Shown: positions 16,487 to 33,569 of the stretch, piece after piece
How the letters are laid out: every line of letters begins with the position of its first letter
How positions within the stretch are numbered: the first letter of the stretch is position 1
DNA from: Candidatus Aenigmatarchaeota archaeon
GTDB lineage: Archaea; Aenigmatarchaeota; Aenigmatarchaeia; CG10238-14; SCSR01
Reading direction: 5' to 3'
Assembly: GCA_038998625.1 (NCBI GenBank)
Contig: JAWADS010000001.1
Span: forward strand, 9,222-73,221
Length of the DNA stretch: 64,000 nt
Notes under the pieces: model-generated
Database searches by the model: none
What the model saw: only the letters and a program-made list of their open reading frames with translations
Told to the model about the DNA's origin: nothing
Made by a program: the position numbers and the translations under genes

Positions 16487-16518
16487 AAATCATTTGATTC
16501 AAATCACAAAATATTTTT

Positions 16519-18468
16519 ATGTATGAGAAAGAAAAGAGTCATTTTAGAAAAGAGAAAAAGATATTAATCTACGAAAAATTGTGCAGTATTTTTAACAATT
16601 TCCCTTCCATTATTCCTAATTATTTTAAAAGGAAATATGATGAAGCAATAATTTTTTCACATATCGATGTTAATTCAAATAGTGCTTTTTGGTTAGGAAT
16701 AACAATACCTATTCTTATATTAGCTATACCTTCCTTGATATTAAGTCTTTTCAATTTATTATCTCCTTCGATTTTTTTGGCCTTTGTCTTTTCGGCAGCT
16801 TATTCTTCATATTATTTCTTAAGCTTTCCTTTGAACTATGCTACTGAATTTAGGTTAAAGGCCACTTCAGAAATGGTTTTATGTGTAAATTATATGGTAA
16901 TAAGTCTGAGAATTTCTCCGAATTTAGAAAATGCTATAAAATTTGCCTCTGAAAATTTAAAGAGTGCATTGGGCTACGATTTGAGAATGGTTTTGTGGAA
17001 TGTCTATACAGGAAAATATTATTCTACCCAAGAAGGTTTTGATCATTTTATTAACAAATGGAAAAGGGAAAACGAAGAATTTGCAGAAGCCTTAACTCTG
17101 TTAAAATCTGCAGTTTTTAAAACTGCTGAAGAAAGGGAAAGGTTTTTATCTAATGCATTAAGAGTGATAATTGACGGATCCAAAACAAGGATTAAAAAAT
17201 ACTCAAGAGAATTAAGGGCTCCAATTGGTGCAGTAAATGCTCTTGGCATATTGCTTCCAGCTTTAGGTCTCGTTTTGATTTCTGTTTTTGCTTTTTTCCT
17301 ACCTTTTAAAATTCCAGCCATTTCTTTTGTTTTAGTTTTTAATTTGATTATACCGGTTATAATTTATTCTTTGTTGAATAACATCCTTTCTAAAAGACCA
17401 TTTTCCTTTCCAGTACCAGATATAACAATTCATCCAAAGTTCAAAAAAGAAAAAACAATTTTGAAAGGAATAATTTCTCTATTACCTTTTATAGCTTTCT
17501 TATCTTATTCTATTCTATCTTTAAGCAGATTACAGAAAGGAGATTTTTTAGGAGAATTAATTTATTCTTTGTTAATAATACTCGGCTTAGCTTTTTCTAT
17601 CATCTTATATGTTTTGTTAATCCATTATCCAAAACTCAAATTAAGGAATGAAATTGAATCTATTGAGTCTGAATTTCCCGATGCTTTATATCAATTGAGC
17701 TTTCAATTAGAAAAAGGATTGCCTATGGAGAGCGCCATTGAATCAATTTTACCTAGAATTAAAACATTACATGTTAAAAATTTCCTTAAAAAAATTAGGG
17801 AAAATATATTAACTTTAGGGCTTACGTTTGAAAGTGCCATTTTCGATAAAAAGTTGGGCGCTATATACTATTTTCCTTCTAAACTTTTAGAAAGTATAAT
17901 GGGCATGGTAGCTAGCATTATGAAAAAAGGTCTAAAAGAAGTATCTAGTTCTATGAGAACTGTATCCAAATATTTATTGGACACTCAAGATGTAATGGAA
18001 AATTTTAGGGATATTTTGAGCGAGTCTGTGGCAGAAATGACCATTCAAAAATATTTACTTTTTCCCATCGTTTCTGCTGTAATAATTGCAATAATTGCGA
18101 TGATATTTCAAGTTTTCTTTATTTTAGGAAATCTGTCAGAAAAATTTATTAAGGGATTAGAAGTGCCTACCGATGTAGGGGAAATAATAAGTGAAGAAAT
18201 AATGTTCGGGTTTTTAAATCTGTCTAATGTTGTGCCTACTTATCAAATTCAGCTGATTGTCGGGTTTTATTTGATTGAGATGATTTTTATTTTATCTTCG
18301 ACTCAAATTATAATTAGCAGAGGAGATGATGTAATATTAAAAAGCGTAGACTTAATGAAGAGTTTAATTGTTGCCATGAGCATTTATTCTTTAGCTTCAA
18401 TCCTATTTTACATAGCTTTTTCTGGTTTAGCTTCTTCTGTCGTCACCAATCTGGGGCAAGTAGGATAG
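16519..18468 (+). CDS. type IV pilus/archaellum assembly platform membrane protein (FlaJ/TadC/PilC-like)
   Basis: 649-aa polytopic membrane protein immediately downstream of secretion ATPase; two TM-bundle regions separated by cytoplasmic domains as in FlaJ. Confidence 0.65.
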   Translation: MYEKEKSHFRKEKKILIYEKLCSIFNNFPSIIPNYFKRKYDEAIIFSHIDVNSNSAFWLGITIPILILAIPSLILSLFNLLSPSIFLAFVFSAAYSSYYFLSFPLNYATEFRLKATSEMVLCVNYMVISLRISPNLENAIKFASENLKSALGYDLRMVLWNVYTGKYYSTQEGFDHFINKWKRENEEFAEALTLLKSAVFKTAEERERFLSNALRVIIDGSKTRIKKYSRELRAPIGAVNALGILLPALGLVLISVFAFFLPFKIPAISFVLVFNLIIPVIIYSLLNNILSKRPFSFPVPDITIHPKFKKEKTILKGIISLLPFIAFLSYSILSLSRLQKGDFLGELIYSLLIILGLAFSIILYVLLIHYPKLKLRNEIESIESEFPDALYQLSFQLEKGLPMESAIESILPRIKTLHVKNFLKKIRENILTLGLTFESAIFDKKLGAIYYFPSKLLESIMGMVASIMKKGLKEVSSSMRTVSKYLLDTQDVMENFRDILSESVAEMTIQKYLLFPIVSAVIIAIIAMIFQVFFILGNLSEKFIKGLEVPTDVGEIISEEIMFGFLNLSNVVPTYQIQLIVGFYLIEMIFILSSTQIIISRGDDVILKSVDLMKSLIVAMSIYSLASILFYIAFSGLASSVVTNLGQVG

Positions 18469-18806: not shown

Positions 18807-19472
18807 ATGGCTACAGGTTTATCTTGGTCTGTTTCGCTTATCTTTGCAATTATCATTGGAATATTGATTGTTTTATTAATTTTTGGCGTGGGGAGTGCAC
18901 TAATTCCGGCTATTGCCGATAGAGCTATGAGCTTTGTGTGTAATTTTCCCATCATGGATGTTACTATTTGTAAAGCTTATGCTGAGAAAAGAACTGTGGA
19001 AGTTTGTTTTGAAAAAGAAGGGTGGGGCCAATTACAAGAAGGAATAAGGGAAGAGAGAAAAATAACTTTAACTTTTATTGCTAGACCATTTGAGCTAATT
19101 CCAATTTATAAATGCTCGGAAAGTCATCAAGCCGTTATTAAAGGAGACCCACCAATACTTTCTTGTAATGTATTAATCTCAAATTCTATAAAAAAGCAAT
19201 TTCGTATAGATGTAAAAGTTCCTGTTGAAGTGGTACGCCCCCCACAGACCGATATTCTAATTATTAAACCAAAAGATGACCCAACAATAACAATTTGGAA
19301 AGCTAATGTGAAATATTCAATCGGGGATAGCTCTTGTGGTGTAACTATAGGAGATTCATCCTCACCCGAAAAGCTGACAAAAGGCGAGAGCATTACTTAT
19401 GATGGTTTAAGAGTAACCCTTAAAGATTACGGAATAGGGGGTTTCATTTTTGAATTGTTTTATTCTAAATAA
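18807..19472 (+). CDS. pilin-like protein with class III (type IV prepilin-like) signal peptide
   Basis: MATGLSWSVSLIFAIIIGILIVLLIF N-terminus; Cys-containing extracellular domain. Confidence 0.5.
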   Translation: MATGLSWSVSLIFAIIIGILIVLLIFGVGSALIPAIADRAMSFVCNFPIMDVTICKAYAEKRTVEVCFEKEGWGQLQEGIREERKITLTFIARPFELIPIYKCSESHQAVIKGDPPILSCNVLISNSIKKQFRIDVKVPVEVVRPPQTDILIIKPKDDPTITIWKANVKYSIGDSSCGVTIGDSSSPEKLTKGESITYDGLRVTLKDYGIGGFIFELFYSK

Positions 19473-19509
19473 ATACTTTTAAATAAATGTAAAATCAAAT
19501 TATTATAAA

Positions 19510-19911
19510 ATGGTTTTAAATAAAAAAGGTTTATCAACTTTAACTATTGTAGTAATAGCTCTTATAATTGCAATCATATTAGGTTTTTTAATATTTTCAG
19601 GTTCTGCTTTTCAACTAGGGCGTGGAACGAGTATAGGTGCGGGAATAGGTTGTTCTCAAGTTCTTAGAGCTATGTGTGCAGATTATAAGGAGCAAACTAA
19701 TGGATTATATGATCCCGGAAGATACCCAACAATACTTCAAGCGCATCTAAAGAATATAGAGGATAATTGTAAAAGGGAAGAGGTATATTGTGATCCAAGT
19801 AAGCCAGGTTGTAGAATTAATTTAAATGATGTAGGAAATGTAATAGTATATTGTTGTGGTTCTGTTGGTGGCGACATATCTGTATGTCGGCCTCAAGCGC
19901 CTCCACAATAA
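19510..19911 (+). CDS. archaeal type IV pilin-like protein, Cys-rich
   Basis: MVLNKKGLSTLTIVVIALIIAIILGF matches the class III signal-peptide consensus ([KR]G then hydrophobic); 8 Cys in a 100-aa globular part. Confidence 0.65.
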   Translation: MVLNKKGLSTLTIVVIALIIAIILGFLIFSGSAFQLGRGTSIGAGIGCSQVLRAMCADYKEQTNGLYDPGRYPTILQAHLKNIEDNCKREEVYCDPSKPGCRINLNDVGNVIVYCCGSVGGDISVCRPQAPPQ

Positions 19912-20056
19912 TGAACATGCTATAAGTATAACAGTTCTTCAAGATATTCTGAGATAGATAAAGTATATAGCATATTAGAACTTGTTATTGTAGACCAGAA
20001 TAGCGATCCTTTTTTTAAATTAAAAGCTAAAAATTTGAATAAAATTCTCTATTTTT

Positions 20057-20521
20057 TCACTTTTTTAAAGTTATATTTTCTGTTCTTTCCAATGTTAATA
20101 TATAACCTTTAGCTAAAATTTCTAACTTACAATCCTCTTTTCCAACAAATCTTTTTGTCGAGACATTTAATTCAAAACAATCCCCGGCTATCAAATTCAG
20201 TTTTTCTTTTACTAGGTTTTCATCTATTTTCATTTCTCCTAATTGTTCTATTTTGCATATAAAAGGCATATTACAAGATAACTTTTTTATGGGTCTTATT
20301 CCTGATAGCCAAAAACTAAAGTTACGATAGAAATTCATATCTGAAAGAAAGGCCAACAAACTGTCGTGGGCATCGGTGAATTGCATTTCATTTCTTGTTA
20401 AACCAACAATATGGAATTTCAAAAAGAAAAAATTTAAAATTCCAGATAGTAGTATAGCAATGGAAAAAAGTACTAAGGCAACGGCTAAAGAGATTAAAGA
20501 CAGGCCTTTTTTCACCATCAA
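20057..20521 (-). CDS. archaeal type IV pilin-like protein
   Basis: MMVKKGLSLISLAVALVLFSIAILL class III signal peptide. Confidence 0.6.
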   Translation of the reverse strand: MMVKKGLSLISLAVALVLFSIAILLSGILNFFFLKFHIVGLTRNEMQFTDAHDSLLAFLSDMNFYRNFSFWLSGIRPIKKLSCNMPFICKIEQLGEMKIDENLVKEKLNLIAGDCFELNVSTKRFVGKEDCKLEILAKGYILTLERTENITLKK

Positions 20522-21309
20522 CTCACCTCAAAACTTTGCAAAACTAATCTACCTATTTTGTATCCATCAACTGTAAAATCATAAAGAATTACAGGAAAAG
20601 CATCCATTGAGTAAGTTGATGAGGAGAAAGATTTAGATAGTTCTTTTTCAAAACAAGTTTTTGTTGTGGCCAAGTCAAACACATCTAAGCTTACTCTTTT
20701 TCCTTCTCCCACTTCAATAACAATTCCGATGGGTAGGAATCTGAAGAGAGCTTGAAATAAAACATCTGTAATTCTTATATTTTGGATAGCACATCTAAAA
20801 AAGTTCATAATAGCCCCTTCTGCCAATAAAGCTTCGCCATGACCTCTATAAACCCATTTTTTTCCATCTTCCAAATTTAGTATTGTAAGTAGATGGGCAG
20901 TGTTGGGATATGAATAACTTGCGAATAAGTTATTTTCAGATATTTCATCTAGTTTGGTTATGTTAAAAACCAAATACTCAGAATACTTTTTTGTAATATC
21001 TACATTTGGTTGAATCAAAGAATATTTATTTAATGTCTTAGTGGTATTCTTCACTAAAAACTCCTTTGCTCCGATTAAGGCTTTACCTAAATTTATATTA
21101 TGCCTTCTCGCTTCGTTTTCGGTAATGATGGCATGCAAATTCAAATAACGTGCTATATAAAAGTAATAAATCATAACTGCTAGAAGAATCATTATTAAAA
21201 TTACAATAACATCAAAAAGTTCAGTAGTAGCTTTTTTATTAATCAAAAAATTTTTAACTTTCAAAATTTTATCCCTCTCTAATATCAAATTTTTCTCCGG
21301 CTTTTTCAA
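20518..21309 (-). CDS. membrane-anchored hypothetical protein (pilus locus)
   Basis: N-terminal TM; start overlaps previous gene stop (ATGA). Confidence 0.35.
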   Translation of the reverse strand: MKKPEKNLILERDKILKVKNFLINKKATTELFDVIVILIMILLAVMIYYFYIARYLNLHAIITENEARRHNINLGKALIGAKEFLVKNTTKTLNKYSLIQPNVDITKKYSEYLVFNITKLDEISENNLFASYSYPNTAHLLTILNLEDGKKWVYRGHGEALLAEGAIMNFFRCAIQNIRITDVLFQALFRFLPIGIVIEVGEGKRVSLDVFDLATTKTCFEKELSKSFSSSTYSMDAFPVILYDFTVDGYKIGRLVLQSFEVS

Positions 21310-21676
21310 TTAGGAATGTGCTAACTTTATCTAATTTTTTATCGATTCCGTTAATACCAGCTTTAGCTTTACCAAATTTTACTGTAGCGCGCAAATCTAA
21401 TGGGCCCTCCCTTGTTACAATTTCCACTTTATATATTCTGTCTTTTACTTCAAGATTGTAAACTGCAGGAGTTCCATAAACAATATATACATTACCAGGA
21501 AAAGCGGCGCTAACTGTAACTAATCCAGATAAATCCCTTGCCACGTTTTCTGCAGTATAATGCAAAATAGATAATAAAAAATCGGTAAAAAATTTAGGAA
21601 TAGTTATGATTATTATTGCTCCTAATAAACCCATTAAAGCCATAGTCAAAAGGGTTATCGCAGTTAAACCTTTCAT
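21269..21676 (-). CDS. archaeal type IV pilin-like protein
   Basis: MKGLTAITLLTMALMGLLGAIIIITI class III signal peptide. Confidence 0.55.
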   Translation of the reverse strand: MKGLTAITLLTMALMGLLGAIIIITIPKFFTDFLLSILHYTAENVARDLSGLVTVSAAFPGNVYIVYGTPAVYNLEVKDRIYKVEIVTREGPLDLRATVKFGKAKAGINGIDKKLDKVSTFLIEKAGEKFDIREG

Positions 21677-21704
21677 ATTAATAATTTCATTTTTAGGAAA
21701 TAAA

Positions 21705-21998
21705 TCATCTGACCTTTGCTAAGACTTCACAACTTTCTTTGTTGGGTTCCAAAATTTGTACTTTTTCACATTTTTCTTTCACATTTATCCACCAATTTGG
21801 CTTATTTGCTTCATCAAATAAAAATTTACTCCATTCCTCACAAAAAGTGAAGACATGATTAATACAATCCATTTTGTCTTTTTTCTTTGCTTCTTCTTCA
21901 GCCCAACCTGAAAATGTTATTAAGAGGACTAAAATTAGAATTAAAGTTATTAAAGCGAAAAAAATTATCTTCCAAACTAAACCTTTTTTTGTATTCAT
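21705..21998 (-). CDS. archaeal type IV pilin-like protein, 4 Cys
   Basis: MNTKKGLVWKIIFFALITLILILVLL class III signal peptide. Confidence 0.55.
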   Translation of the reverse strand: MNTKKGLVWKIIFFALITLILILVLLITFSGWAEEEAKKKDKMDCINHVFTFCEEWSKFLFDEANKPNWWINVKEKCEKVQILEPNKESCEVLAKVR

Positions 21999-22009
21999 AT
22001 TTTATATTT

Positions 22010-22372
22010 TCATTTTAAAGAAAAAAACCCTGCTATTTCGTTATAGTTACAATATATGGTTGATGCGCCTTCTATAAGTGTCATTATAAAAACCAGGAAG
22101 ACAATAATGCCATATAAATTGCTCAAAAATAATCCCCCTACTAATGATACCATTGGTCCAAATCTGGAAAATATTAAGATGTCTAGAATAAACAAAGCTA
22201 TTAAAACAATTGTTGGCTGCAAAGCTAAAAAAATTATTTTGATGCCTAACGGTAAAGTCCAACCAAAAAGCCTCAATAAAAAGAAAAATGGACCTTCGCT
22301 GATAAAACATGCTAAAGGCTGTAAATTGTTTAAAAAATAATTAAACTGTGCTAAGACAGACAAATCAACCAT
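22010..22372 (-). CDS. small polytopic membrane protein, hypothetical
   Basis: 120 aa, 3 predicted TM. Confidence 0.3.
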   Translation of the reverse strand: MVDLSVLAQFNYFLNNLQPLACFISEGPFFFLLRLFGWTLPLGIKIIFLALQPTIVLIALFILDILIFSRFGPMVSLVGGLFLSNLYGIIVFLVFIMTLIEGASTIYCNYNEIAGFFSLK

Positions 22373-22970
22373 AGGTTACACTTTCCCATTTTTTTTCAGA
22401 AAATATGTCTAACATTTCTTTTACTTGTTCAGATTGAATTTTATTTTTTAACTCATCGAGCTTTTCATCCAAGTATGGAACAAAAAAAGGTGAAAAATGA
22501 AAAAGAAACATTAAGAAAAGTATCGTAATTAGACTCATGGCTAATCCTTTGCCTATACCCTTTTTCATTCTGTTATTGGTTTCGGAATAAGATGAAATAA
22601 AAATTAAAACAAACATACCAGTTATAAACAAAGGGGCTATTAAAACTAAAAAGTTTGAGACATTAAAAATAAATGCAACAAAATTTTCAGAAAAGCCACC
22701 AACAGTTACCAATAGAGATTTCAATATTATTTCTAAATAGATGCTTATATTAAGGGTAGCGTAATAGGATAAAATAACACTTACTGTTATGTTAATCATT
22801 TTCATCATCTCGAAATTTTTTATATTGAATCCCTGCTTTTCTTCTTCTAATTTTTTTACCTCTACACTTTTTTCTAAAGACTTTTCTAAAAGTTTAGAGA
22901 CTTTTTCTAATTGTTTAGCAATTTTTTCACTGATTGCAGATTTGGCCTTATTTAAAATTGCTTTTACCAC
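22365..22970 (-). CDS. membrane protein with N-terminal coiled coil, hypothetical
   Basis: 201 aa; charged helical N-terminus then 4 TM. Confidence 0.35.
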   Translation of the reverse strand: MVKAILNKAKSAISEKIAKQLEKVSKLLEKSLEKSVEVKKLEEEKQGFNIKNFEMMKMINITVSVILSYYATLNISIYLEIILKSLLVTVGGFSENFVAFIFNVSNFLVLIAPLFITGMFVLIFISSYSETNNRMKKGIGKGLAMSLITILFLMFLFHFSPFFVPYLDEKLDELKNKIQSEQVKEMLDIFSEKKWESVTYG

Positions 22971-23005: not shown

Positions 23006-24865
23006 ATGAAAGGGATTTCTACTTTACTAGTTTTGGCCGCAATTTTTTTATTTGTAAGCTTGCTTATAAATTTTATTTTCTTTCTTAATGTTTTGTCAAG
23101 AGAAGAAAATTTTGTTAGAACAGTAAGGGAAATGTATATCTATCAAGGGATAAATTACATCGAGCAATTTAAGAGGGCTTTTCCTTTTTTAATCGAATAC
23201 TCAATTTATAAGACTCTATCTCATAATGGAGGAGAACTATGTTCTTTCGGCCAAAGCACTTTTATAACTCCTTTAGCAGCCCAAGATTTCTTAAGCAGAA
23301 ATCGCTTACTTACTATTAATAATGTTCCCGCAGGTAGTATTCATACATCCCTCTATTGGGTTTTACTATATTTTGACAATTATCATAATTATTTAAATAA
23401 AATTGCCGAATTAACTTCGATCTTTTCTAGGATTCAACGCATCGTCTTCGATTATACCCCCGGGGTTAAAGTTGATGGTTATGCTGTGGATGATAAAATA
23501 TTAGTAACTTCTGAAAATACAATATCAAAACTTTTGCCAAACAATTTAGGAATTTTAAATGAAACCTTAAATGCTTCTGTCGAATTAATCATGAATTTTA
23601 TTCAACTCCTCGATAGAGCAGACGAAGAATGGTTAAATCAACCAAAATGTAGTGAGAGGGATTCTCTAGTAAAAAGTACAGCTGAGGCCTTTGAATGTAG
23701 CGAGGAAGGATCTTTTACCTACTCTTCATTAGAAGAATGTGAAAATGCTTGCGTATATATGGAACCATCAAGATGCGTTTATATTTTACAGCAAGAAATT
23801 GCTGGTGCTATAGGTGTACCATTAGGTTCAGATGTTAAAAACATTGATAAAGTTAAGGGAAGGTCAGTTGCTATAAGAGAATATACTAATCTAGGTGTCG
23901 AAACAAATTATCTTTTAGGATATTGCGTTGATAGTGGTTGCGATTGTTCTAAAAAAGAGTGTGAAGAGAAGGATGATGAAGGAAATTGTATTGAAGAAAA
24001 GTGTGTAGAATGGACTAAGAAAGTTAAGTGTGAATACAAAAATTGGAGGGCAAGAGCAGGTTTATCTATCACAGAAAAGGATGAAAGGAATTTTTACCCT
24101 GCTTCGAATGATTGGGTGCAATCACAATTTAGTTTTAGTATGGTTTTAGGGCATTTGGATTTAGGAACCAGAACTACATTAGACACTTGTGCTACTAGAA
24201 AAATAATTGAAGCCCAGTTGGAGGAAGAGTGTAAAAAGTCTGGCGGAACTTGGAATCCAGATAAAAAGCAATGTGAAAATTGTCCAGATAGGAAAGTTTT
24301 CTACAAAGGTAAATGTGTAGAAAAATCTATTGTATGTAAAGAGACAGGTGGGACTTACAATCAAGATACAGACACATGTTCATGTCCTGATGATAAATTA
24401 CTTGTTCTAGAAGCTTATTGTATAAATAAAAAAGAAATTTGTGAAAGCGAAGATGAGAATTTGGGTATAGTCAAAGGTAATTACAACCCACAGACAAATG
24501 ATTGCGAATGCCCTCAAGATACTATTGATATGGGTCCTTATTGTTTATCAAAAAAAGCAGCTTGTACTCAAAGCGGTGGAACTTATAATCCAAATAATCC
24601 GAAAAAACCTTGCGAATGCGATGCAAATAAGGGTTTAATTTCTTGGGGGGATGTTTGTGTAAGTAAGAAGGAGGCTTGTGGTTTTAGTGCTCCAGATAAG
24701 GGAATAAAAGCCGGTACATATGATGAAGTTAATAGAGTTTGTGATTGCCCTAATGGAACTAAATACAATGAAGAATTTGGAATTTGTGTAGAAGCAAAAC
24801 TAGTATGTAGTTGTGCAAAAAATGTTGTGACTAACGAAGTAATCTGTAGTTGTTCAGAAGCTTAA
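23006..24865 (+). CDS. secreted cysteine-rich repeat protein (5 repeats of about 42 aa with 4 Cys each)
   Basis: N-terminal TM/signal; C-terminal repeats of pattern C-x12-13-C-x-CP-x10-12-C-x6 (for example CKKSGGTWNPDKKQCENCPD..., CKETGGTYNQDTDTCSCPDD..., CTQSGGTYNPNNPKKPCECDAN...). Confidence 0.6.
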   Translation: MKGISTLLVLAAIFLFVSLLINFIFFLNVLSREENFVRTVREMYIYQGINYIEQFKRAFPFLIEYSIYKTLSHNGGELCSFGQSTFITPLAAQDFLSRNRLLTINNVPAGSIHTSLYWVLLYFDNYHNYLNKIAELTSIFSRIQRIVFDYTPGVKVDGYAVDDKILVTSENTISKLLPNNLGILNETLNASVELIMNFIQLLDRADEEWLNQPKCSERDSLVKSTAEAFECSEEGSFTYSSLEECENACVYMEPSRCVYILQQEIAGAIGVPLGSDVKNIDKVKGRSVAIREYTNLGVETNYLLGYCVDSGCDCSKKECEEKDDEGNCIEEKCVEWTKKVKCEYKNWRARAGLSITEKDERNFYPASNDWVQSQFSFSMVLGHLDLGTRTTLDTCATRKIIEAQLEEECKKSGGTWNPDKKQCENCPDRKVFYKGKCVEKSIVCKETGGTYNQDTDTCSCPDDKLLVLEAYCINKKEICESEDENLGIVKGNYNPQTNDCECPQDTIDMGPYCLSKKAACTQSGGTYNPNNPKKPCECDANKGLISWGDVCVSKKEACGFSAPDKGIKAGTYDEVNRVCDCPNGTKYNEEFGICVEAKLVCSCAKNVVTNEVICSCSEA

Positions 24866-24898: not shown

Positions 24899-25276
24899 AT
24901 GAATTGGGAGGAATTATATAAAAAATATTCAAAGCCAAAAAAGAAAAAAATATTTCCTATTTTATTAGTTATAGTCTTTTCGACTCTATTTTTTCTCTTC
25001 ATATTATATTATTTTTCTTTACCAGAATTTATAGAGCCACAGGCTGAAATTGTAAGTGATGTAATAACTCTACCTTCTATAAAGGGCGAGCATTGCACAA
25101 TATATATAACTGGTCCAAATAATATAATAAAATTATTTTCGGAATATGATTGTAGCGAATATCAAATTTTTAGGTTTGAGATTTTAGATCTTTTTTCGGA
25201 TATTAAAGGTAGGTATAAGTTAGTTGTTGTTTCTGATTCAGGAAATAATTTGACGAAAAACTTTTTGGTGGTATAA
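24899..25276 (+). CDS. single-pass membrane protein, hypothetical
   Basis: 125 aa, N-terminal TM; stop overlaps start of giant gene (TAATG). Confidence 0.35.
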   Translation: MNWEELYKKYSKPKKKKIFPILLVIVFSTLFFLFILYYFSLPEFIEPQAEIVSDVITLPSIKGEHCTIYITGPNNIIKLFSEYDCSEYQIFRFEILDLFSDIKGRYKLVVVSDSGNNLTKNFLVV

Positions 25277-28200
25277 TGAAAAAAAGTATTTCAATTTTTT
25301 TAATTATAACTTATTTGCTCTCCATTATTAAAGTACCAATAGCTGTCACGCAGAGTACAGATAATTTTAGTGATGAAGATGTAAAGAAAATTTTAAGCAA
25401 AGGAGCAATATTTTGTGTAAAAGATGCTGTAGAGGTATCTAAAGATGTTTATAAAGTTGTATGTTTAATCTCTCCTAAAAATTTAACCAAAGTAAAATTT
25501 GAATTTGGGCCCGCATTTAGTTTTGGAAGAATGGAGTTTCTAGGTTATGAAGCCACAGATAAGATTGAGTTTGTGAGCAAATTTAAGAACTTTCTGGAGT
25601 TTGAAGTATTTCCCACTTCTAGAGTAGGATTTACTATAAATATAAAAGCAAATTTCAGGCCCAATTTCAAAGTAACTTCCACTCTACCTGCTTATTACTT
25701 TAATGATTTGAAAGAACTTTTTGATGCTATAGATTCTATTCATTCTATAGAAGCATTGGAAGTTTTAAAATCTAGTTGTGAGGTGGCGTTTGAGAAAGAA
25801 TGTGTTTTAGAACATTTTATTACTAATTCCAGTGCTCCGGCGAAATATATAAATTTAACTAGTGATGAGTTAAGCAAATTGGTAGCTTTAGGAGAATTTT
25901 CCAAAAAGATAGATGGTGCTGATGTAAAATTTGTGCTTAGTTTTGAAAATAATGAAGTAAAAGTTTATGATAAGGAAAATTATGTCGGAAACTTTTATTT
26001 GCATTCAGCTTTTGTTCCCGTTAAAGCGCCAAGCCTCCCTGAAACGAATTTAACATCTTTAGAAACGATTAAAGAAGTTACCTTATTTTTCTTGAATTAT
26101 GAATTGAAAATAAATGGAACTGACGTTTATATAACAGAGTACGAAGATTTAGATTTGTTGGCAGATGAAATATTTTCTGGCAAACTATTTCCAATTACAG
26201 GTTCTTTTATTGCCACAGAAATTTTTAATAAGATAAAAGAAGAGTTGCTAATTAAACAAAGTAAACAAAGAGATTTAGCAGAAAAAATACATACTTTTGA
26301 AAAATTCGCTACCGACTATAATGTAAATATATTTAAACGCATAATGATTGCTATCTTAAACGAGATAAATAATAATATAGAATTAGGTGAAATAGAGGAA
26401 GCTAGTCAGCGTATAACAAAATTGAAAAATGCAGTTGGGGAATTTTCAAAAAATGCAGTTGGGGAATTTAAAGATTATTTCCAAGATTTAGAGAAAGAAC
26501 TAACTAAAATAGAAGAAACCATTAAAACAGATTTTAAAAGTGCACTAGATTATGTAAGAAATTTAAAAGAAAAAATAACTTCTGAAACAATTAATGATTT
26601 CCTTCAAGTTGCAAAGTCGAAAGGAGTAGATATATCTAAAAAATTTACAGAGAAAGATGGTAGGAGAGCACCAAAAGTTGTAAATGTTGTAAGAACAAGC
26701 GTAACAGAATTACCACCATCTATAAAAGATAAAATCACGTCACCTATATTCGTTCCTAAAGGACAACCTGATTTAAAAGATATGAAAAAATTCTTTAAAG
26801 AGCTCGCTTTTAGGGATTATATTGACCAAGGCATTTATTTGTTCTGGGGTGATTACTCAAAGGTCCCTAGAGAATATTTACAAGTATATGTTTCTGTAGC
26901 TAAGGAAGATTATCAAAAGGCTTTGAAGTTTATACAATTTGAACTGAAAAGAAATAATATACCTCATTTAATGGTTAAGCCAGAGCTTTATGATGAAGTT
27001 AAGAATGGAAAATATGTGATAATTCTTTTACGTAATAATGACGATTTGAGAGTGGTAAGGACCATAGAAGATATCTTATATAATCTAAATATTAGACCTG
27101 GGCCCAAGCCTTTAATAAAGGGAATATCTTTAGATAAGTATATAATAAGTAAATATACTTTTGGCGCGTGGGAAAACAATTTTGGTGGAGAAAAAAAGAT
27201 TAAACCAATTCTTGCATATAATTCTGATACTGGGAAGTTGGAAACTATATCTCCAGAGACACCTTTGCTTCCAAAAGTTGTTACACAATCTGATTTATTG
27301 AATAAAAATTTCAAAGAGGGAGATGTGATTGCTTATTTTGCTCCTCATGGTGATGCTAGAATATATTTAATGGGGGAAATAAAATCCTTTGACGCAAGTA
27401 AAAAAAGAGTTCTCGTTTCAAATATTTTTGGTTCAGAATTTGAGATCCCAATAAATTGGGTATCAAATACACCAAACATTCATATCTTTTACGATAAACA
27501 TAAGCAAATCGAAATACGACAATTATCAGAAAAACTATGGAGGAATTCTCTATCAAAAAATCTCGCCTCTAAATTAAGCATATCGGATGTTGAGCTTTTG
27601 TTAAAGAATGGATTTTACCTTAAAGGTGATTTAGTTTATTACCTTTCTGAAGATAAAAGAATTTATAGCTTACCTCTCGATGATTTTCTAAAATCTCCCT
27701 CAATTGAAGATATTTTTTGGGATACATATAAGAATCATTTAATAGTTATTCCTAATTCCCTAAGCGAAAAATATCCTGCGAGACTTAAAGGTCTTGCTAT
27801 AACTAAATCTGTTTATAATGATATAACTTCTTGGATTAATAACATCCAGCCCGGTCAACAGAAAGGTTTAGTTGCTTTCCTTACAATGAATGAAAAAGGA
27901 GTGATAGACAAAGTTTGGTTAAAGGGCATAACTGATCCTGTTTATGAAGGAGTGACTCTTGGTTCTATCCAAGATTTCCATAAGTATATATTAGCAAAAT
28001 ATTTGAACCCATTAGAGTTTGGTCTACATGGAAAACTATTGGCATATTTCGTACCAGAAGGCTTCTTACCAGATTTAACCTTAGGGCAACTTTTAGCGTC
28101 TTTTGAGTATGATAAAAAGGATGTTTTTCATTTATTGCTTATTTCAAGAGAATTAGGTGAAGTAAAATTTAATTTTTACAGAATTGATTTTTCCAAGTTA

Positions 28201-31200
28201 TCGAAGGATGATATTCAATGGCTAAAATACATAGCGAATGAATATCGAAGGAGAACTGGAACAGAATTAGCTTTATCTACAATAAGTGAGCAATTGGAGG
28301 CGCACCCAGATTTAAAAGCATATTTTGAAAAACATTCTAATTTCCACAAGATTGGTACACAAAATATTGAAATGGTTCATAAAATTGATGAAACAAAAGC
28401 TTTCAAAATTGCACTACTTAATGGTGAACAAGCCATAGGTGGTTTGGAGAGATCTCTAAAAAATCTTAAAAAAATGATATTTTTTGGCAATGAGTTAGAT
28501 CTTCAAACTGGTTTTACATATAGATATTCTTTTAGATACGCTTCTAATATATATACAGAAATACGCAGAAGAGTGGATCTATGGGACAGTATTTTAGATA
28601 ATCTGTTAAAAAGCGGTGAGATATCCCAAGAAATTTACAATTCTTATAAAAACATAATAAATAAAGTTTACGAAATAGGATTAACCATTGAGCCAGGGAA
28701 GCCTATAAAGGATACTTTGAAAAAAATTGATGAAGCTTTAAAGTCAATAAAGAATGAAAAGAAGACATTATTTAAATTATTATCCTATCAATCTAAAAAA
28801 TTATCCATAGAGCCCAACACTGGGTTTAGTGAGGTCGCTAAAAATATAGAACCTACTAAATTACCTGAAAATATTGAAGAGTCCATAGAGAATTCTGCAA
28901 TCGCTAAAGTAGCAAAAGAAGAAGCTGAAAAGGGCATAAAAGAAATTCCAAGTCAAGAAGAAATTCTACAAAAAATTGAAAGGGAACAAGAAAGATTAAT
29001 ATCAGAAACACCAAGAACGAGTTTTGAGCCTACTGCTCAAAAAATTGGTAAAGTAGATGAATTAACTTCCAAGATTGATAATTATATCCTATCTAGTAAA
29101 ATAGCAGATTCGTTAACAACAGAAAATATTAGAAAATTGTTGGATGGAAAAGTAGTTTTTGTTGATGATAATTATTTGCTTGTATTATCTCCAAAAGGTC
29201 AATTAACTTTAGTTCATTTTCCTGATAAAACGTTTTTATATTCTTCCGATGGAACTAAGGCTGTTATAAAAATGAGATCCACACCCTACCTAACACCAGA
29301 CGATTTAGATGAATTAATAAAAAAGAACATACCTATGGTTTATCCGAAATATAAGCTTCCCGATGAAGTTCTTGTAATAGGAATTGTGGATGGAAGGCCT
29401 GTTGAAAAACTTTATGATTTGAGAGAATTCAAAAAGTTTGTTGAAAATGAGGGAACGCCTTCAGCAAAAATATCAAGAGAATTTAGAGAAAAATTTAACT
29501 CTTATTTAGATTCTATTCGTGGAACAGAAGAAGAAGTTGTAAAAGCGTTAGATAAATTTTTCAATATGAAAGGGTTGCCGGAAAAATCTGATTTAACTAT
29601 TGCGGCAGGCCCGGCAGTAAAAGTAAAACCCAAATTACTCAACATCGATGAAGATTATCTTCAATTCAGGTTAGGAATTTCTATTATTAATGCCGAGACG
29701 GCACAAAACGTACTTTCACCAATATATGCTATAAGGGACGATTTAGAAACTAATTTTAAGTTAATGGGAATAAAGACCCCTGATGACATAGCAGATGGTA
29801 TGACAATAAAAATAAAAGGAAGAGATTATGTTTTACGTAAATTACCTAATAACCAAATTTCTATCGAGCTTGCAGTTTTTCGTGAGGGTGATCCATCCCT
29901 TTTAGAATTCCAAAAAGTGGGCACATTTTATCTTGTTGATGGTGAAGTTAAAGATGCGTATTCATGGAATAGAGCGGTGGCTTCTACGTTCAAAGATGTA
30001 AAGGCTTCTCAAGACCTCAGGGATGGCAGATATATTCTGAATACAAATAATTACAAAATTGAAAAAATGGATTATGGCTCAGTAGTGTTTGAAAATAATA
30101 GGCCAGCTATTTTTAGTATTGTAGGGGCAAATAGGGAAACCATGTATGTACCTATTTCTATTGATAGATCGCAATTTTTGCAAAAAACTTTCTCAGAAAT
30201 CGGAACTGCTGGGATAGGAAAAGAATATGCATTCGGTTCAGACAATGGAGATGTCTATAGATTTACCAAAAGACATTGGGAACCCGATTTAAAATGGGAA
30301 ATGGAAGTTAATGGAAAACCGGCTGGATTTTTGACGGATGAAGGATTAAAAACAAAAATAAGAGAATTAGTGGGTTCTGGTTATAATCCATTAATTCCCG
30401 CTTATAGGTTTAGTCCAATCGATGTTGAAAAAGAAATAAGAGGACTTTCAGAGCCTTATTATTCTAAAACTTTCTCAAATGGTCAAGAAGCTTTCAGACT
30501 TAGAAATGTTGATGGTCGCATTATATTAGAGACAGGGGGGATGCAACCAAGAACAATAACTGTTGAAGAGGCTCGGTCACTTCTAGCAACATCTAAAAGA
30601 GTAGAGATATTAAGCACAGATGGTGCTAATTTAATATCCCAAACATCTTTTTGGAAACAAATATCAAGGCCAGTAGGAATATTAACAAAAGATTTTTATC
30701 CTTTAGTTGGTCCGGCTGATTTTATTGCTTTTGGCGCTATAGCAGCATTTTCTCTTTATAGTATAACTGAAAATAGGGAAGAAATGAATAGGAGAATTGT
30801 TTATAATACGGTTGAAAATTTTGCGGTCGAGCCTCTATTAGTTACAACAATTGCAAGGGGTTTAGGTCTGAGAGCAGCTTTCAGTGGCGCAAGGGCTGCT
30901 GTTGCGGGCGTAGGTGGCGCAATTACTCTAGGAATTTTAACGGCTGTAGTTGCTGCAGAAATGGTTGCAGAAGATACAATAGAAGAATATCTAAGAGGTA
31001 ATAGGTTAAATGATATGGGTATACCTATACCTAATGATTTGGGGTCAGCTTTAGGTAGAGTTTTTGGAGGATATTGGGACTTTTTAATAAATTCAAATAG
31101 TGAGCAAACTCTAGAGAGTAGCAGTATGTTTAATACAGTAGCTACATCCATTTATAAAGACTTATCTAATCAAGCATTAAAAAACTTTCAAAATTATATA

Positions 31201-32682
31201 GATTCAAAGATTGGTAATAAAAATAATGAAATCCTTAAGGGAATACAAAAAATCATAGAACTTCACGGCACAGGTCCTAAAGGAAACTATGTAGACATAA
31301 TCGATGGTACGGAATATGTGTGGTTTATGGAAGAAGGTAAGTTTGAAGTTAAGTATACAAATGAAGCCGGGAATAAAGTTACAATAACCTATAGAATAAC
31401 TGATGCGGGTATTGTACCTACTGAATATAAGGAAGAAGGTAAAGTGGGCTTTGATGCTCTCGGTTGCTTAACACGTCCCTTAGGTTTAGGTGGGAATTGT
31501 TGTTTAAATCTAGCTGGGTGTGATGTAGGAATAATAGAAGAAAGGAAGATTAGTTTCTCTGATTTACAACATGAGGCTTTCAATAGGGCCGATGATTTAA
31601 TTGTTGATAGAGTAGAAGGAGATTTAAATAGATTGACTGCCTTTACAAAACCCGATGAAATTCTTAATGAAGCTCAAAGAATAGCCGATAAACTAAATTC
31701 AGATCCAAATTTTGTTCAATATTATGGTAGGCCCATCACAGCTTCAGAAGTTATTGAACTTGCAAAACCAAAAATTAAAAAAGATGCTGAAACAGAATGC
31801 CTACAAGCATTTGCTGGAGATATTTATGGTTTCTCTTCACAAGAAGCTTATGATAAATGCGTTGAAGATACATATAAGAAAAAAGTTCAGGCATTCGAAG
31901 AAAGTCATAATCAGATAGGATTTAAAGATTGTTCACAAGCTGGTGGAACATGTATGCCACCTATACATGCTGTGGAACGTGGTTGCGAGAGGTTTTACTT
32001 TTATTGCGATAGTTCACGAATGTGTTGCAAATCCCAAGTAAGTACACCGCAAGAGCCTAAAGGTCAAGAGACAATCAATACTTACGAGGCATGTGAAGGC
32101 TTACGTAACCAGGGACTAGATTCAGGTTGCTATCTTGGCAAATGCGGTCAAGGTTACATTTCAGCAGGCTATTGCGATAAGGCAAATGACGTTTATTGTT
32201 GTGTTAAGGCAGAAGGGACTGGCCAAATCAACACTTACGAGGCATGTGAAGGCTTACGTAATCAAGGACTAGATTCAGGTTGCCATCTTGAAAAATGTAT
32301 TCAAGGTTACACTTCAGTAGGTTATTGTGATCAGGCAAATAGCGTTCATTGTTGTGTTAAAACAGAAGATTGTACTTCAAAGGAATTGAAAAAAGAATGT
32401 ATTAGTGATAAAAAACTAAGGATTACTGGTTATGTTTGTCCTTCTGGCTATGGTAGTGATATAAATTGTCTGAAATGTGTGGAGGGTTCTGCGGAGATAG
32501 AATGTAAAATGGGATGCAGCACCAAAACTAACAACTGTGTTGAAGAAAATTTTGTACCCATAGGAAATTATATTTGCCCAAAAGACGCTTGCAGTAAAAG
32601 CGGTGAATTTTGGACTTGTGATTTGGGTAGATGTGAGGCTCTACAAGGCAGCAGTGCACCTACTGCACCTACAAGTGAATAA
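25276..32682 (+). CDS. giant secreted/surface protein (2468 aa) with C-proximal hydrophobic segments and C-terminal Cys-rich modules
   Basis: Uninterrupted 7.4-kb ORF; signal peptide MKKSISIFLIITYLLSIIKVPIAV; hydrophobic stretches at residues about 1805-1900; C-terminal 400 aa with more than 40 Cys including a duplicated 51-aa 6-Cys module. Confidence 0.8.
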   Translation: MKKSISIFLIITYLLSIIKVPIAVTQSTDNFSDEDVKKILSKGAIFCVKDAVEVSKDVYKVVCLISPKNLTKVKFEFGPAFSFGRMEFLGYEATDKIEFVSKFKNFLEFEVFPTSRVGFTINIKANFRPNFKVTSTLPAYYFNDLKELFDAIDSIHSIEALEVLKSSCEVAFEKECVLEHFITNSSAPAKYINLTSDELSKLVALGEFSKKIDGADVKFVLSFENNEVKVYDKENYVGNFYLHSAFVPVKAPSLPETNLTSLETIKEVTLFFLNYELKINGTDVYITEYEDLDLLADEIFSGKLFPITGSFIATEIFNKIKEELLIKQSKQRDLAEKIHTFEKFATDYNVNIFKRIMIAILNEINNNIELGEIEEASQRITKLKNAVGEFSKNAVGEFKDYFQDLEKELTKIEETIKTDFKSALDYVRNLKEKITSETINDFLQVAKSKGVDISKKFTEKDGRRAPKVVNVVRTSVTELPPSIKDKITSPIFVPKGQPDLKDMKKFFKELAFRDYIDQGIYLFWGDYSKVPREYLQVYVSVAKEDYQKALKFIQFELKRNNIPHLMVKPELYDEVKNGKYVIILLRNNDDLRVVRTIEDILYNLNIRPGPKPLIKGISLDKYIISKYTFGAWENNFGGEKKIKPILAYNSDTGKLETISPETPLLPKVVTQSDLLNKNFKEGDVIAYFAPHGDARIYLMGEIKSFDASKKRVLVSNIFGSEFEIPINWVSNTPNIHIFYDKHKQIEIRQLSEKLWRNSLSKNLASKLSISDVELLLKNGFYLKGDLVYYLSEDKRIYSLPLDDFLKSPSIEDIFWDTYKNHLIVIPNSLSEKYPARLKGLAITKSVYNDITSWINNIQPGQQKGLVAFLTMNEKGVIDKVWLKGITDPVYEGVTLGSIQDFHKYILAKYLNPLEFGLHGKLLAYFVPEGFLPDLTLGQLLASFEYDKKDVFHLLLISRELGEVKFNFYRIDFSKLSKDDIQWLKYIANEYRRRTGTELALSTISEQLEAHPDLKAYFEKHSNFHKIGTQNIEMVHKIDETKAFKIALLNGEQAIGGLERSLKNLKKMIFFGNELDLQTGFTYRYSFRYASNIYTEIRRRVDLWDSILDNLLKSGEISQEIYNSYKNIINKVYEIGLTIEPGKPIKDTLKKIDEALKSIKNEKKTLFKLLSYQSKKLSIEPNTGFSEVAKNIEPTKLPENIEESIENSAIAKVAKEEAEKGIKEIPSQEEILQKIEREQERLISETPRTSFEPTAQKIGKVDELTSKIDNYILSSKIADSLTTENIRKLLDGKVVFVDDNYLLVLSPKGQLTLVHFPDKTFLYSSDGTKAVIKMRSTPYLTPDDLDELIKKNIPMVYPKYKLPDEVLVIGIVDGRPVEKLYDLREFKKFVENEGTPSAKISREFREKFNSYLDSIRGTEEEVVKALDKFFNMKGLPEKSDLTIAAGPAVKVKPKLLNIDEDYLQFRLGISIINAETAQNVLSPIYAIRDDLETNFKLMGIKTPDDIADGMTIKIKGRDYVLRKLPNNQISIELAVFREGDPSLLEFQKVGTFYLVDGEVKDAYSWNRAVASTFKDVKASQDLRDGRYILNTNNYKIEKMDYGSVVFENNRPAIFSIVGANRETMYVPISIDRSQFLQKTFSEIGTAGIGKEYAFGSDNGDVYRFTKRHWEPDLKWEMEVNGKPAGFLTDEGLKTKIRELVGSGYNPLIPAYRFSPIDVEKEIRGLSEPYYSKTFSNGQEAFRLRNVDGRIILETGGMQPRTITVEEARSLLATSKRVEILSTDGANLISQTSFWKQISRPVGILTKDFYPLVGPADFIAFGAIAAFSLYSITENREEMNRRIVYNTVENFAVEPLLVTTIARGLGLRAAFSGARAAVAGVGGAITLGILTAVVAAEMVAEDTIEEYLRGNRLNDMGIPIPNDLGSALGRVFGGYWDFLINSNSEQTLESSSMFNTVATSIYKDLSNQALKNFQNYIDSKIGNKNNEILKGIQKIIELHGTGPKGNYVDIIDGTEYVWFMEEGKFEVKYTNEAGNKVTITYRITDAGIVPTEYKEEGKVGFDALGCLTRPLGLGGNCCLNLAGCDVGIIEERKISFSDLQHEAFNRADDLIVDRVEGDLNRLTAFTKPDEILNEAQRIADKLNSDPNFVQYYGRPITASEVIELAKPKIKKDAETECLQAFAGDIYGFSSQEAYDKCVEDTYKKKVQAFEESHNQIGFKDCSQAGGTCMPPIHAVERGCERFYFYCDSSRMCCKSQVSTPQEPKGQETINTYEACEGLRNQGLDSGCYLGKCGQGYISAGYCDKANDVYCCVKAEGTGQINTYEACEGLRNQGLDSGCHLEKCIQGYTSVGYCDQANSVHCCVKTEDCTSKELKKECISDKKLRITGYVCPSGYGSDINCLKCVEGSAEIECKMGCSTKTNNCVEENFVPIGNYICPKDACSKSGEFWTCDLGRCEALQGSSAPTAPTSE
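26425..26472 (+). repeat. 24-nt tandem duplication (encodes KNAVGEFS twice) inside giant gene
   Basis: aaaaatgcagttggggaattt occurs twice with 24-nt period. Confidence 0.7.
32074..32379 (+). repeat. 153-nt tandem duplication (about 90 percent identity) encoding a 51-aa 6-Cys module
   Basis: atcaaTacttacgaggcatgtgaaggcttacgtaaCcagggactagattcaggttgcTatcttg... repeated starting 32074 and 32227. Confidence 0.85.
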
Positions 32683-32714: not shown

Positions 32715-33569
32715 ATGGAAAAAGGTCAAGCAGGTTTAATAATTATTGCCGTAGTTGTTGTATTGGCCATAATAATTTTTATGTTTTCTTCATCTGGCCC
32801 TACCACAACCTTTCCTACTGGTGGTATAGGTGGTAAAGGAAGTGCTTTGAATATAGAGCAATTAAGGTTTAAACCTGAAGTCTTTTCAGGAGAAAGTATT
32901 GTTATCGAAGTAAAAATAAAGAATAGGGGTATATATGATGCTAAAAATGTTGTATTAAATCTTTTAGGCCTAACCGATGAATGGAAAATAGATGGCGAAC
33001 CATTAACATCAAATCATCCTAAAAGAACAGTGAGTTTTCCAACGCTTCTAGGAGATCCAAAGCTAAATGGTGAAGAACAAATAGCTATTTGGCAATTAAC
33101 AGTTCCAAATAAAGTAACTACCCTTACATATCCATTCACCATAAAACTTAATTATGATTATAAAAGTAGATACGAGGCATTGGTTAGAACAGTTTCCCCA
33201 ACTTTTAGAGAAAAGGGAAGGCTTCTAGATCAAAAGATTACTCCTGGACCCATAGTGGTTAGTCTCAAATCAGATGAGTGGCGCGTCATCGGAACTTTTA
33301 CAAGTGTTGAATTAACTATTACTAATTCTGGAGGCGGAGAGGTAGTGGACAGAGTTATTACTTTAAAAAACCTTAAAAATATAGAATGTCCGCAAACTAC
33401 ATTAACTTTTAGCACAAAAGATTCACAAATAGAAAAAGAAATAACAACAACATGTAAAATTCTTACAGGTTCGGTCCAAGAATTTAATGATATTGAAGTA
33501 AGTTTTGATTTAGAATATAGATATTCAATAAAACAAGATAAAAGCATAAAAGTTAAACCTTTAGCTTAA
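32715..33569 (+). CDS. secreted pilin-like protein with class III signal peptide
   Basis: MEKGQAGLIIIAVVVVLAIIIF matches archaeal prepilin motif (KG then Q/A); 260-aa beta-rich extracellular part with 2 Cys near C-terminus. Confidence 0.5.
   Translation: MEKGQAGLIIIAVVVVLAIIIFMFSSSGPTTTFPTGGIGGKGSALNIEQLRFKPEVFSGESIVIEVKIKNRGIYDAKNVVLNLLGLTDEWKIDGEPLTSNHPKRTVSFPTLLGDPKLNGEEQIAIWQLTVPNKVTTLTYPFTIKLNYDYKSRYEALVRTVSPTFREKGRLLDQKITPGPIVVSLKSDEWRVIGTFTSVELTITNSGGGEVVDRVITLKNLKNIECPQTTLTFSTKDSQIEKEITTTCKILTGSVQEFNDIEVSFDLEYRYSIKQDKSIKVKPLA

Follow-up and report, generated by a model that had tools for sequence, protein, structure and literature searches.

How DPANN archaea recognise their hosts and attach to them is, in molecular terms, largely unexplained. 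The locus described here lies in a stretch of 64,000 nucleotides (the window) from a metagenome-assembled genome (MAG) of Candidatus Aenigmatarchaeota, and it raises the question of whether a protein of 2468 amino acids, encoded among pilin-like genes, could take part in such contacts. The source is a DPANN archaeon, a tiny or reduced thermophile of hot springs; an archaeal SRP RNA and Alba agree with the reduced archaeon assumed by a first-pass annotation of this DNA, which had also proposed that the giant is a surface protein displayed with the pilus.

The giant gene and its conserved neighbourhood

The open reading frame of the giant (25276..32682, + strand) starts with ATG, runs uninterrupted with zero internal stops and corresponds to the NCBI entry "MAG hypothetical protein QXQ18_00215" of Candidatus Aenigmatarchaeota. 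Its size is exceptional, as previously noticed, the runner-up ORFs of the 64-kb window reaching 753 and 744 aa. A full-length, co-linear ortholog of 2328 aa (P0002, 42% identity) is encoded in a second metagenome, on the independent ENA contig L001, and the synteny comparison proposed by the first-pass annotation reveals the same four-gene neighbourhood around it. The giant gene is therefore real and not an assembly artefact. Specifically, the gene order common to both contigs comprises the 619/733-aa gene, the 125/130-aa gene, the giant, the 284/282-aa gene, Alba and, at a greater distance, AMP phosphorylase; the TAATG overlap between the stop codon (TAA) of the 125-aa gene and the ATG of the giant is also kept in L001. 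Within this arrangement sequence divergence is fastest in the giant and in the 125-aa protein (42-43% identity with L001), to be compared with 54-65% for the 619-aa pilin-like protein, 65% for the 284-aa one and 76-83% for housekeeping neighbours. For most of the giant the evolutionary depth is that of one ortholog, in a family of two known members; the exhaustive search for homologs covered the protein beyond residues 1-1239.

A probable accessory cassette of a pilus locus

Upstream of the giant, the window encodes a putative pilus motor and a series of pilin-like proteins (Table 1). The ATPase (14252-16486) matches PF00437 (E 2e-15) and the NCBIfam FlaI/TadA models (E 2e-35 and 3e-33, with the curated cutoffs missed by a wide margin in either case), and the putative platform protein (16519-18468) shows about eight transmembrane peaks; the two are 60% and 44.5% identical to their counterparts in L003, the homologous pilus locus of a close relative. 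At least seven ORFs of the window locus (the 619-aa and 284-aa ones and five more upstream) have class-III-signal-peptide-like N-termini; no class III signal peptidase itself turned up in the window. The giant thus lies between pilin-like genes, as the first-pass annotation had it, and it is again flanked by both of them in L001, a 14-kb contig that ends short of any ATPase or platform gene. Clustering and linkage assign the giant to an archaeal TFF (type IV pilus-like) locus, as an accessory component. The giant itself does not qualify as a class III (pilin) signal protein, since it lacks the [KR]-[GA] prepilin-peptidase motif, ahead of a hydrophobic helix, carried by the 619-aa and 284-aa proteins (w619 and w284) and by five small ORFs.

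The 125-aa protein has homologs only where the giant is present, the 284-aa protein has no homolog in L003, L004 or L008, and the pilus locus of L003 does without the whole 125-giant-284 cassette. In other words, the cassette appears to have been added to the pilus locus in some Aenigmatarchaeota and is lacking in close relatives. Fast-evolving and conserved, it offers a concrete and testable candidate for host recognition or attachment.

Among the small upstream ORFs, the one at 22010-22372 (- strand) resembles the transmembrane part of P0005 and P0010, two defensin-repeat proteins described below.

Table 1. Features of the giant and of the surrounding locus, in window coordinates
Feature	Position (nt)	Strand	Details
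Pilus motor: T2SSE/FlaI-type ATPase and putative platform protein	14252..18468	+	744 aa (N-terminal extension) and polytopic 649 aa
Cluster of small ORFs (pilin-like and membrane)	18807..22970	both	KGLS/KGLT/KGLV N-termini
619-aa pilin-like protein	23006..24865	+	MKGIS...; own Cys-rich repeat ectodomain, 38 Cys
125-aa single-pass membrane protein	24899..25276	+	TAA stop overlaps ATG of the giant (TAATG)
Signal-peptide-like N-terminus, Sec-type	25276..25350	+	aa 1-25; Kyte-Doolittle (KD) 2.24 over aa 5-23; kept in P0002
Conserved N-terminal domain	25351..26061	+	aa 26-262; 4 invariant Cys; 5 of the giant's 6 N-x-S/T sequons
Lineage-specific insertion, mostly helical	26062..26670	+	aa 263-465; alignment gap, missing in ortholog
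Central non-repetitive region	26671..30636	+	aa 466-1787; zero Cys, zero sequons, no recognisable domain
Conserved hairpin module	30637..31812	+	aa 1788-2179; also in P0003 and P0004
Putative transmembrane hairpin, two hydrophobic helices	30694..30975	+	aa 1807-1900; helices aa ~1809-1829 and ~1874-1896
Degenerate 6-Cys unit R0	31930..32028	+	aa 2219-2251; C-x6-C-x10-C-x6-C-x6-CC
Beta-defensin-like repeat R1	32092..32202	+	aa 2273-2309; C-x11-C-x4-C-x9-C-x7-CC
Beta-defensin-like repeat R2	32245..32355	+	aa 2324-2360; recent tandem duplicate of R1
C-terminal 12-Cys module	32371..32634	+	aa 2366-2453; 56-66% identity with ortholog
284-aa pilin-like protein	32715..33569	+	MEKGQAG and hydrophobic helix; co-inherited with giant

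Architecture and location of the giant protein

The giant begins with MKK (MKKSISIFLI...) followed by a hydrophobic stretch of about 17 residues, in keeping with the signal peptide already recognised at this place. The N-terminal domain that follows is 52-66% identical to the ortholog across aa 51-150. For the insertion next to it, helices are predicted with low confidence (AF2 model 2), and the only Pfam/PHROG matches are weak ones of coiled-coil type. In the central region AF2 predicts small mixed alpha/beta domains, with pLDDT 70-85 only at aa ~1488-1558 and ~1628-1778. Chunked self-BLAST picked up internal repetition only in the Cys-rich unit at aa ~2243-2364, leaving the remainder non-repetitive. 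Both the long non-repetitive region of the earlier reading (about 1,780 residues without repeats) and the Cys-rich tail after the hydrophobic segments (36 of 40 cysteines in aa 2064-2453) are thus recovered. Searches of Pfam, NCBIfam, PHROGs and PDB (sequence and fold) found no adhesin, lectin, Ig-like, PilY1 or DUF2341 domain in the giant; judging from its sequence, no domain outside the hairpin module and the defensin-like tail matches anything known.

The distribution of two residue types bears on the location of the protein. The 40 cysteines form even-numbered clusters, 39 of them are invariant in the ortholog, and none occurs across the 1,887 central residues (aa 177-2063). N-x-S/T sequons are depleted in the giant (6 observed, at positions 30, 69, 184, 193, 258 and 280, against 15.6 expected; z -2.6) and even more so in the ortholog (1 against 16.1; z -4.1, a value reached by 0 of 1000 shuffles). 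Six control motifs stay at expectation in both proteins, so that the depletion is specific; the remaining 60 ORFs of the window together hold 72 sequons against 76 expected. Because of the signal-like N-terminus, the conserved even-numbered Cys clusters and the specific loss of sequons, the giant is very probably extracytoplasmic. The reading of the sequon depletion rests on general archaeal biology, as no AglB gene was found among the ORFs scanned. The purging of sequons across about 2,000 residues in both orthologs would constitute a sequence-only signal of surface exposure, applicable to other orphan giants. The S-layer gene of the window (59976-62237; PF05124, E 1.3e-18) holds 10 sequons against 6.2 expected. 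Considered as an archaeal S-layer protein itself, the giant was rejected on account of its sequon depletion and of the lack of an S-layer family match.

Beta-defensin-like repeats in the cysteine-rich tail

A feature that had escaped the first-pass annotation is that the Cys-rich tail contains repeats that look like beta-defensins. The framework scored was C-x(4-8)-C-x(3-5)-C-x(9-13)-C-x(4-7)-CC. The relatives P0002, P0005 and P0010 fit it exactly (C-x6-C-x4-C-x9-C-x7-CC); R1 and R2 match it save for a C1-C2 spacing of 11, and R0 deviates, the P0002 unit aligned to R0 having beta-defensin-type spacing. This framework is found nowhere else in the six-frame translations of the window. At the DNA level, a tandem repeat spans 32073-32368 (153 bp unit, 1.9 copies, 86% matches). 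A separate Cys-rich secreted protein of 357 aa ends in a counterpart of the last ~50 aa of the adjacent 12-Cys module (tblastn, L001 12382-12510).

The repeats of the giant are similar to those of P0005 and P0010 (tblastn E 1e-14 to 1e-18), which score 33.8 and 44 bits against Pfam PF00711 (Defensin_beta), both above the gathering threshold of 21 bits; for the ortholog the scores are 16.7 bits (tail) and 21.2 bits (one repeat). The tail and the single repeats of the giant gave no match to PF00711, even with the C1-C2 insertion deleted, and their membership would be transitive only, via P0005 and P0010. A small beta-defensin HMM yielded marginal scores on the giant's repeats (5.7 and 8.7 bits, equalled by 14 and 9 of 200 Cys-fixed shuffles). 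When a profile of the archaeal repeats was searched against all PDB sequences, beta-defensins were the only matches, and hhalign aligned six of six cysteines of the two groups with P 1.3e-4. The predicted fold contains the short three-stranded antiparallel beta-sheet and superposes on hBD-2 at 1.1 Å (region pLDDT 60-78). Non-cysteine positions are also common to the archaeal repeats and beta-defensins (G-x-C and C-P-x-x-Y-x-x-I-G-x-C).

Vertebrate beta-defensins (PF00711, trans-defensin superfamily) and the archaeal relatives have in common the six-Cys framework C-x6-C-x4-C-x9-C-x6/7-CC. They differ in that the archaeal units are arranged in tandem inside a predicted surface protein of 2468 aa, instead of being free secreted peptides, and in that the units of the giant are acidic rather than cationic (net charge from C1 to the CC pair: R1 -1, R2 -2) and space C1 and C2 by 11 residues, not 6. 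A small secreted cationic antimicrobial or chemotactic peptide was rejected for the same reasons of charge and tandem arrangement. We give slightly less than an even chance to the proposal that true beta-defensin (trans-defensin) folds, with their canonical disulfide connectivity (C1-C5, C2-C4, C3-C6), are present in the tail of the giant as well as in small membrane proteins of sister pilus loci, in the ectodomains, where they would act as acidic, heat-stable components of surface proteins instead of antimicrobial peptides. They would be the first outside animals: trans-defensins have been described as animal-only, and from bacteria only cis-defensins are reported (PMC11561630). Such folds would imply a scaffold of far greater age or wider transfer than assumed so far, or else a case of striking convergence extending to non-cysteine positions. 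Confirmation would change the evolutionary picture of the defensin scaffold and provide thermostable defensin-fold domains for engineering.

A portable module with a hydrophobic hairpin

The hydrophobic Ala/Gly segments noticed earlier at nt 30694-30975 resolve into two helices (KD 1.59 and 2.07 in 19-aa windows) separated by an Arg-containing stretch of ~45 aa. What had been missed is that, by sequence similarity, this block is part of a conserved module occurring outside archaea too. In particular, the exhaustive HMMER search detected the module in P0003 and P0004 (E 8e-19 and 2e-13), as did alignment and tblastn; both proteins come from high-GC organisms (contig GC 0.58-0.60 vs 0.30-0.33) and carry different N-terminal fusions (P0003 DUF3626, P0004 a region containing HExxH). 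A beta-rich insert of ~115 aa (aa ~1990-2100), which includes a cluster of 4 Cys, splits the module in both the giant and its ortholog. The second helix is Gly/Ala-rich, with KD ~2.0 in four of four homologs; the first is weakly hydrophobic (KD 1.2-1.6) with conserved Asp and Pro. The loop has a net charge of +1 and the segment after the second helix one of -4. AF2 predicts the helices with pLDDT below 50.

A model for the giant and its alternatives

The placement between pilins had been taken to suggest display with the pilus. The placement stands; the display is in tension with the conserved two-helix hairpin, which would more simply anchor the giant in the cell's own membrane. This anchoring stays conditional, because the first helix is weakly hydrophobic with a conserved Asp and AF2 confidence is low. 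On balance, we lean towards the giant being a Sec-exported, hairpin-anchored extracytoplasmic protein of the TFF cluster with two ectodomains, a pilus accessory with a contact or adhesion role. The N-terminal signal peptide would direct export via Sec, and the hairpin (aa ~1809-1896) would hold the protein in the membrane with its Arg-containing loop in the cytoplasm, a topology suggested by the positive-inside pattern and by the Cys and sequon statistics on either side. The N-terminal ectodomain would form a Cys-free, non-repetitive arm of ~1,780 residues, tipped by the conserved, putatively disulfide-bonded domain. The C-terminal one (~570 residues) would end in putative disulfide-knotted modules, namely three beta-defensin-like units (one degenerate, two recent duplicates) and the 12-Cys module; because the units are acidic and not cationic, we interpret them as compact modules, stable to heat, that serve structure or binding and not as antimicrobials. 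The 125-aa gene and the giant are probably translationally coupled, and because of coupling and co-inheritance the 125-aa protein, the giant and the 284-aa pilin-like protein probably cooperate as a pilus accessory cassette. An adhesin or host-contact role is plausible, and contact with a host cell or surface is the most likely function we infer.

Bacterial PilY1/PilC proteins, non-pilins that carry Sec-type signals and are encoded and co-inherited with minor-pilin-like genes, offer a different template. That is, the giant could be fully secreted and dock on the 284- and 619-aa pilin-like proteins at the pilus tip or base, its hydrophobic helices being buried in a helical domain. The Sec-type rather than class III signal, the flanking and co-inherited pilin-like genes and the weak first helix with its Asp and Pro would all suit this arrangement, and large non-pilin adhesins are known in archaeal TFF loci (PMC4858521; bioRxiv 10.64898/2026.04.22.720090). 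We nevertheless regard it as unlikely. The PilY1/Neisseria_PilC C-terminal beta-propeller gave no Pfam or NCBIfam match, with the whole giant or with nine sub-fragments, and no PDB sequence or fold match, and DUF2341 was not matched either; a second helix strongly hydrophobic in very distant homologs is better explained as a membrane segment, and the charge distribution suits an in-membrane hairpin. Moreover, the giant is twice the size of PilY1/PilC, belongs to another domain of life, lacks the propeller and the vWA domain, and is probably membrane-anchored.

The same hairpin module, rich in Gly/Ala, might instead be a latent insertion device delivered by the giant arm, with the defensin-like units binding the host membrane or envelope, as beta-defensins are membrane-active in animals; the protein would then help to build the DPANN-host connection. 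The portability of the module, found in unrelated high-GC organisms behind different N-terminal domains, and the composition of the second helix are consistent with such a device, and pores, bridges or nanotubes whose components await identification connect DPANN archaea to their hosts (PMC11329633). The portable module may act in membrane insertion at the DPANN-host contact. As an account of the whole giant we judge this improbable: similarity to known pore-formers or translocators is missing, the units are acidic, unlike membrane-active defensins, P0004 lies amid ordinary chromosomal genes with no secretion system, and the MAG has no known host. Still less probable is a structural envelope protein, S-layer-associated or acting as a cell-wall spacer, devoid of a specific binding role. 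The giant is large and predicted to be extracellular and membrane-anchored, and large S-layer-like proteins exist in some archaeal pilus loci (Makarova et al., PMC4858521), but the window has a separate S-layer protein, sequon-rich where the giant is sequon-depleted, the cassette is dispensable since a close relative with the same pilus locus does without it, and the giant diverges fast. That the ORF encodes a multidomain enzyme of the cytoplasm, or stems from faulty annotation or assembly, is hardly credible: the one hint is a marginal PDB sequence match (E 0.003) between a low-complexity linker and the lid region of an AAA ATPase, and against it stand the conserved ortholog and synteny, the absence of any enzyme family match in Pfam, NCBIfam and PDB searches, the N-terminal segment that resembles a signal, the depletion of sequons and the conservation of the Cys clusters. 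The clear homology to a cytoplasmic enzyme that the first-pass annotation had named as grounds for refutation was thus looked for and not found.

Relation to known giant and adhesin-like proteins

Protease, adhesion and nuclease domains can reportedly be recognised in the SPEARE proteins. The giant showed no relationship to them in sequence or domains; it resembles SPEARE and other giants of DPANN/CPR episymbionts (Nanohaloarchaeum antarcticus; PMC6642349) in being lineage-specific, presumably surface-exposed and encoded by an ultrasmall, probably host-dependent organism. Archaeal TFF loci of the present build often hold large adhesin-like genes (bioRxiv 10.64898/2026.04.22.720090; PMC4858521). 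Unlike their products (DUF2341/arCOG03508 and Ig-rich arCOG05616; Makarova et al. 2016, PMC4858521), the giant shows no DUF2341, Ig or beta-helix similarity, belongs to a two-member family and combines an internal hydrophobic hairpin with a defensin-like Cys tail. Like them, it is a very large non-pilin that bears a signal peptide and is presumed to act in adhesion or recognition, and its gene lies among pilin genes, beside a single platform gene and the gene of an N-terminally extended FlaI/TadA-type ATPase.

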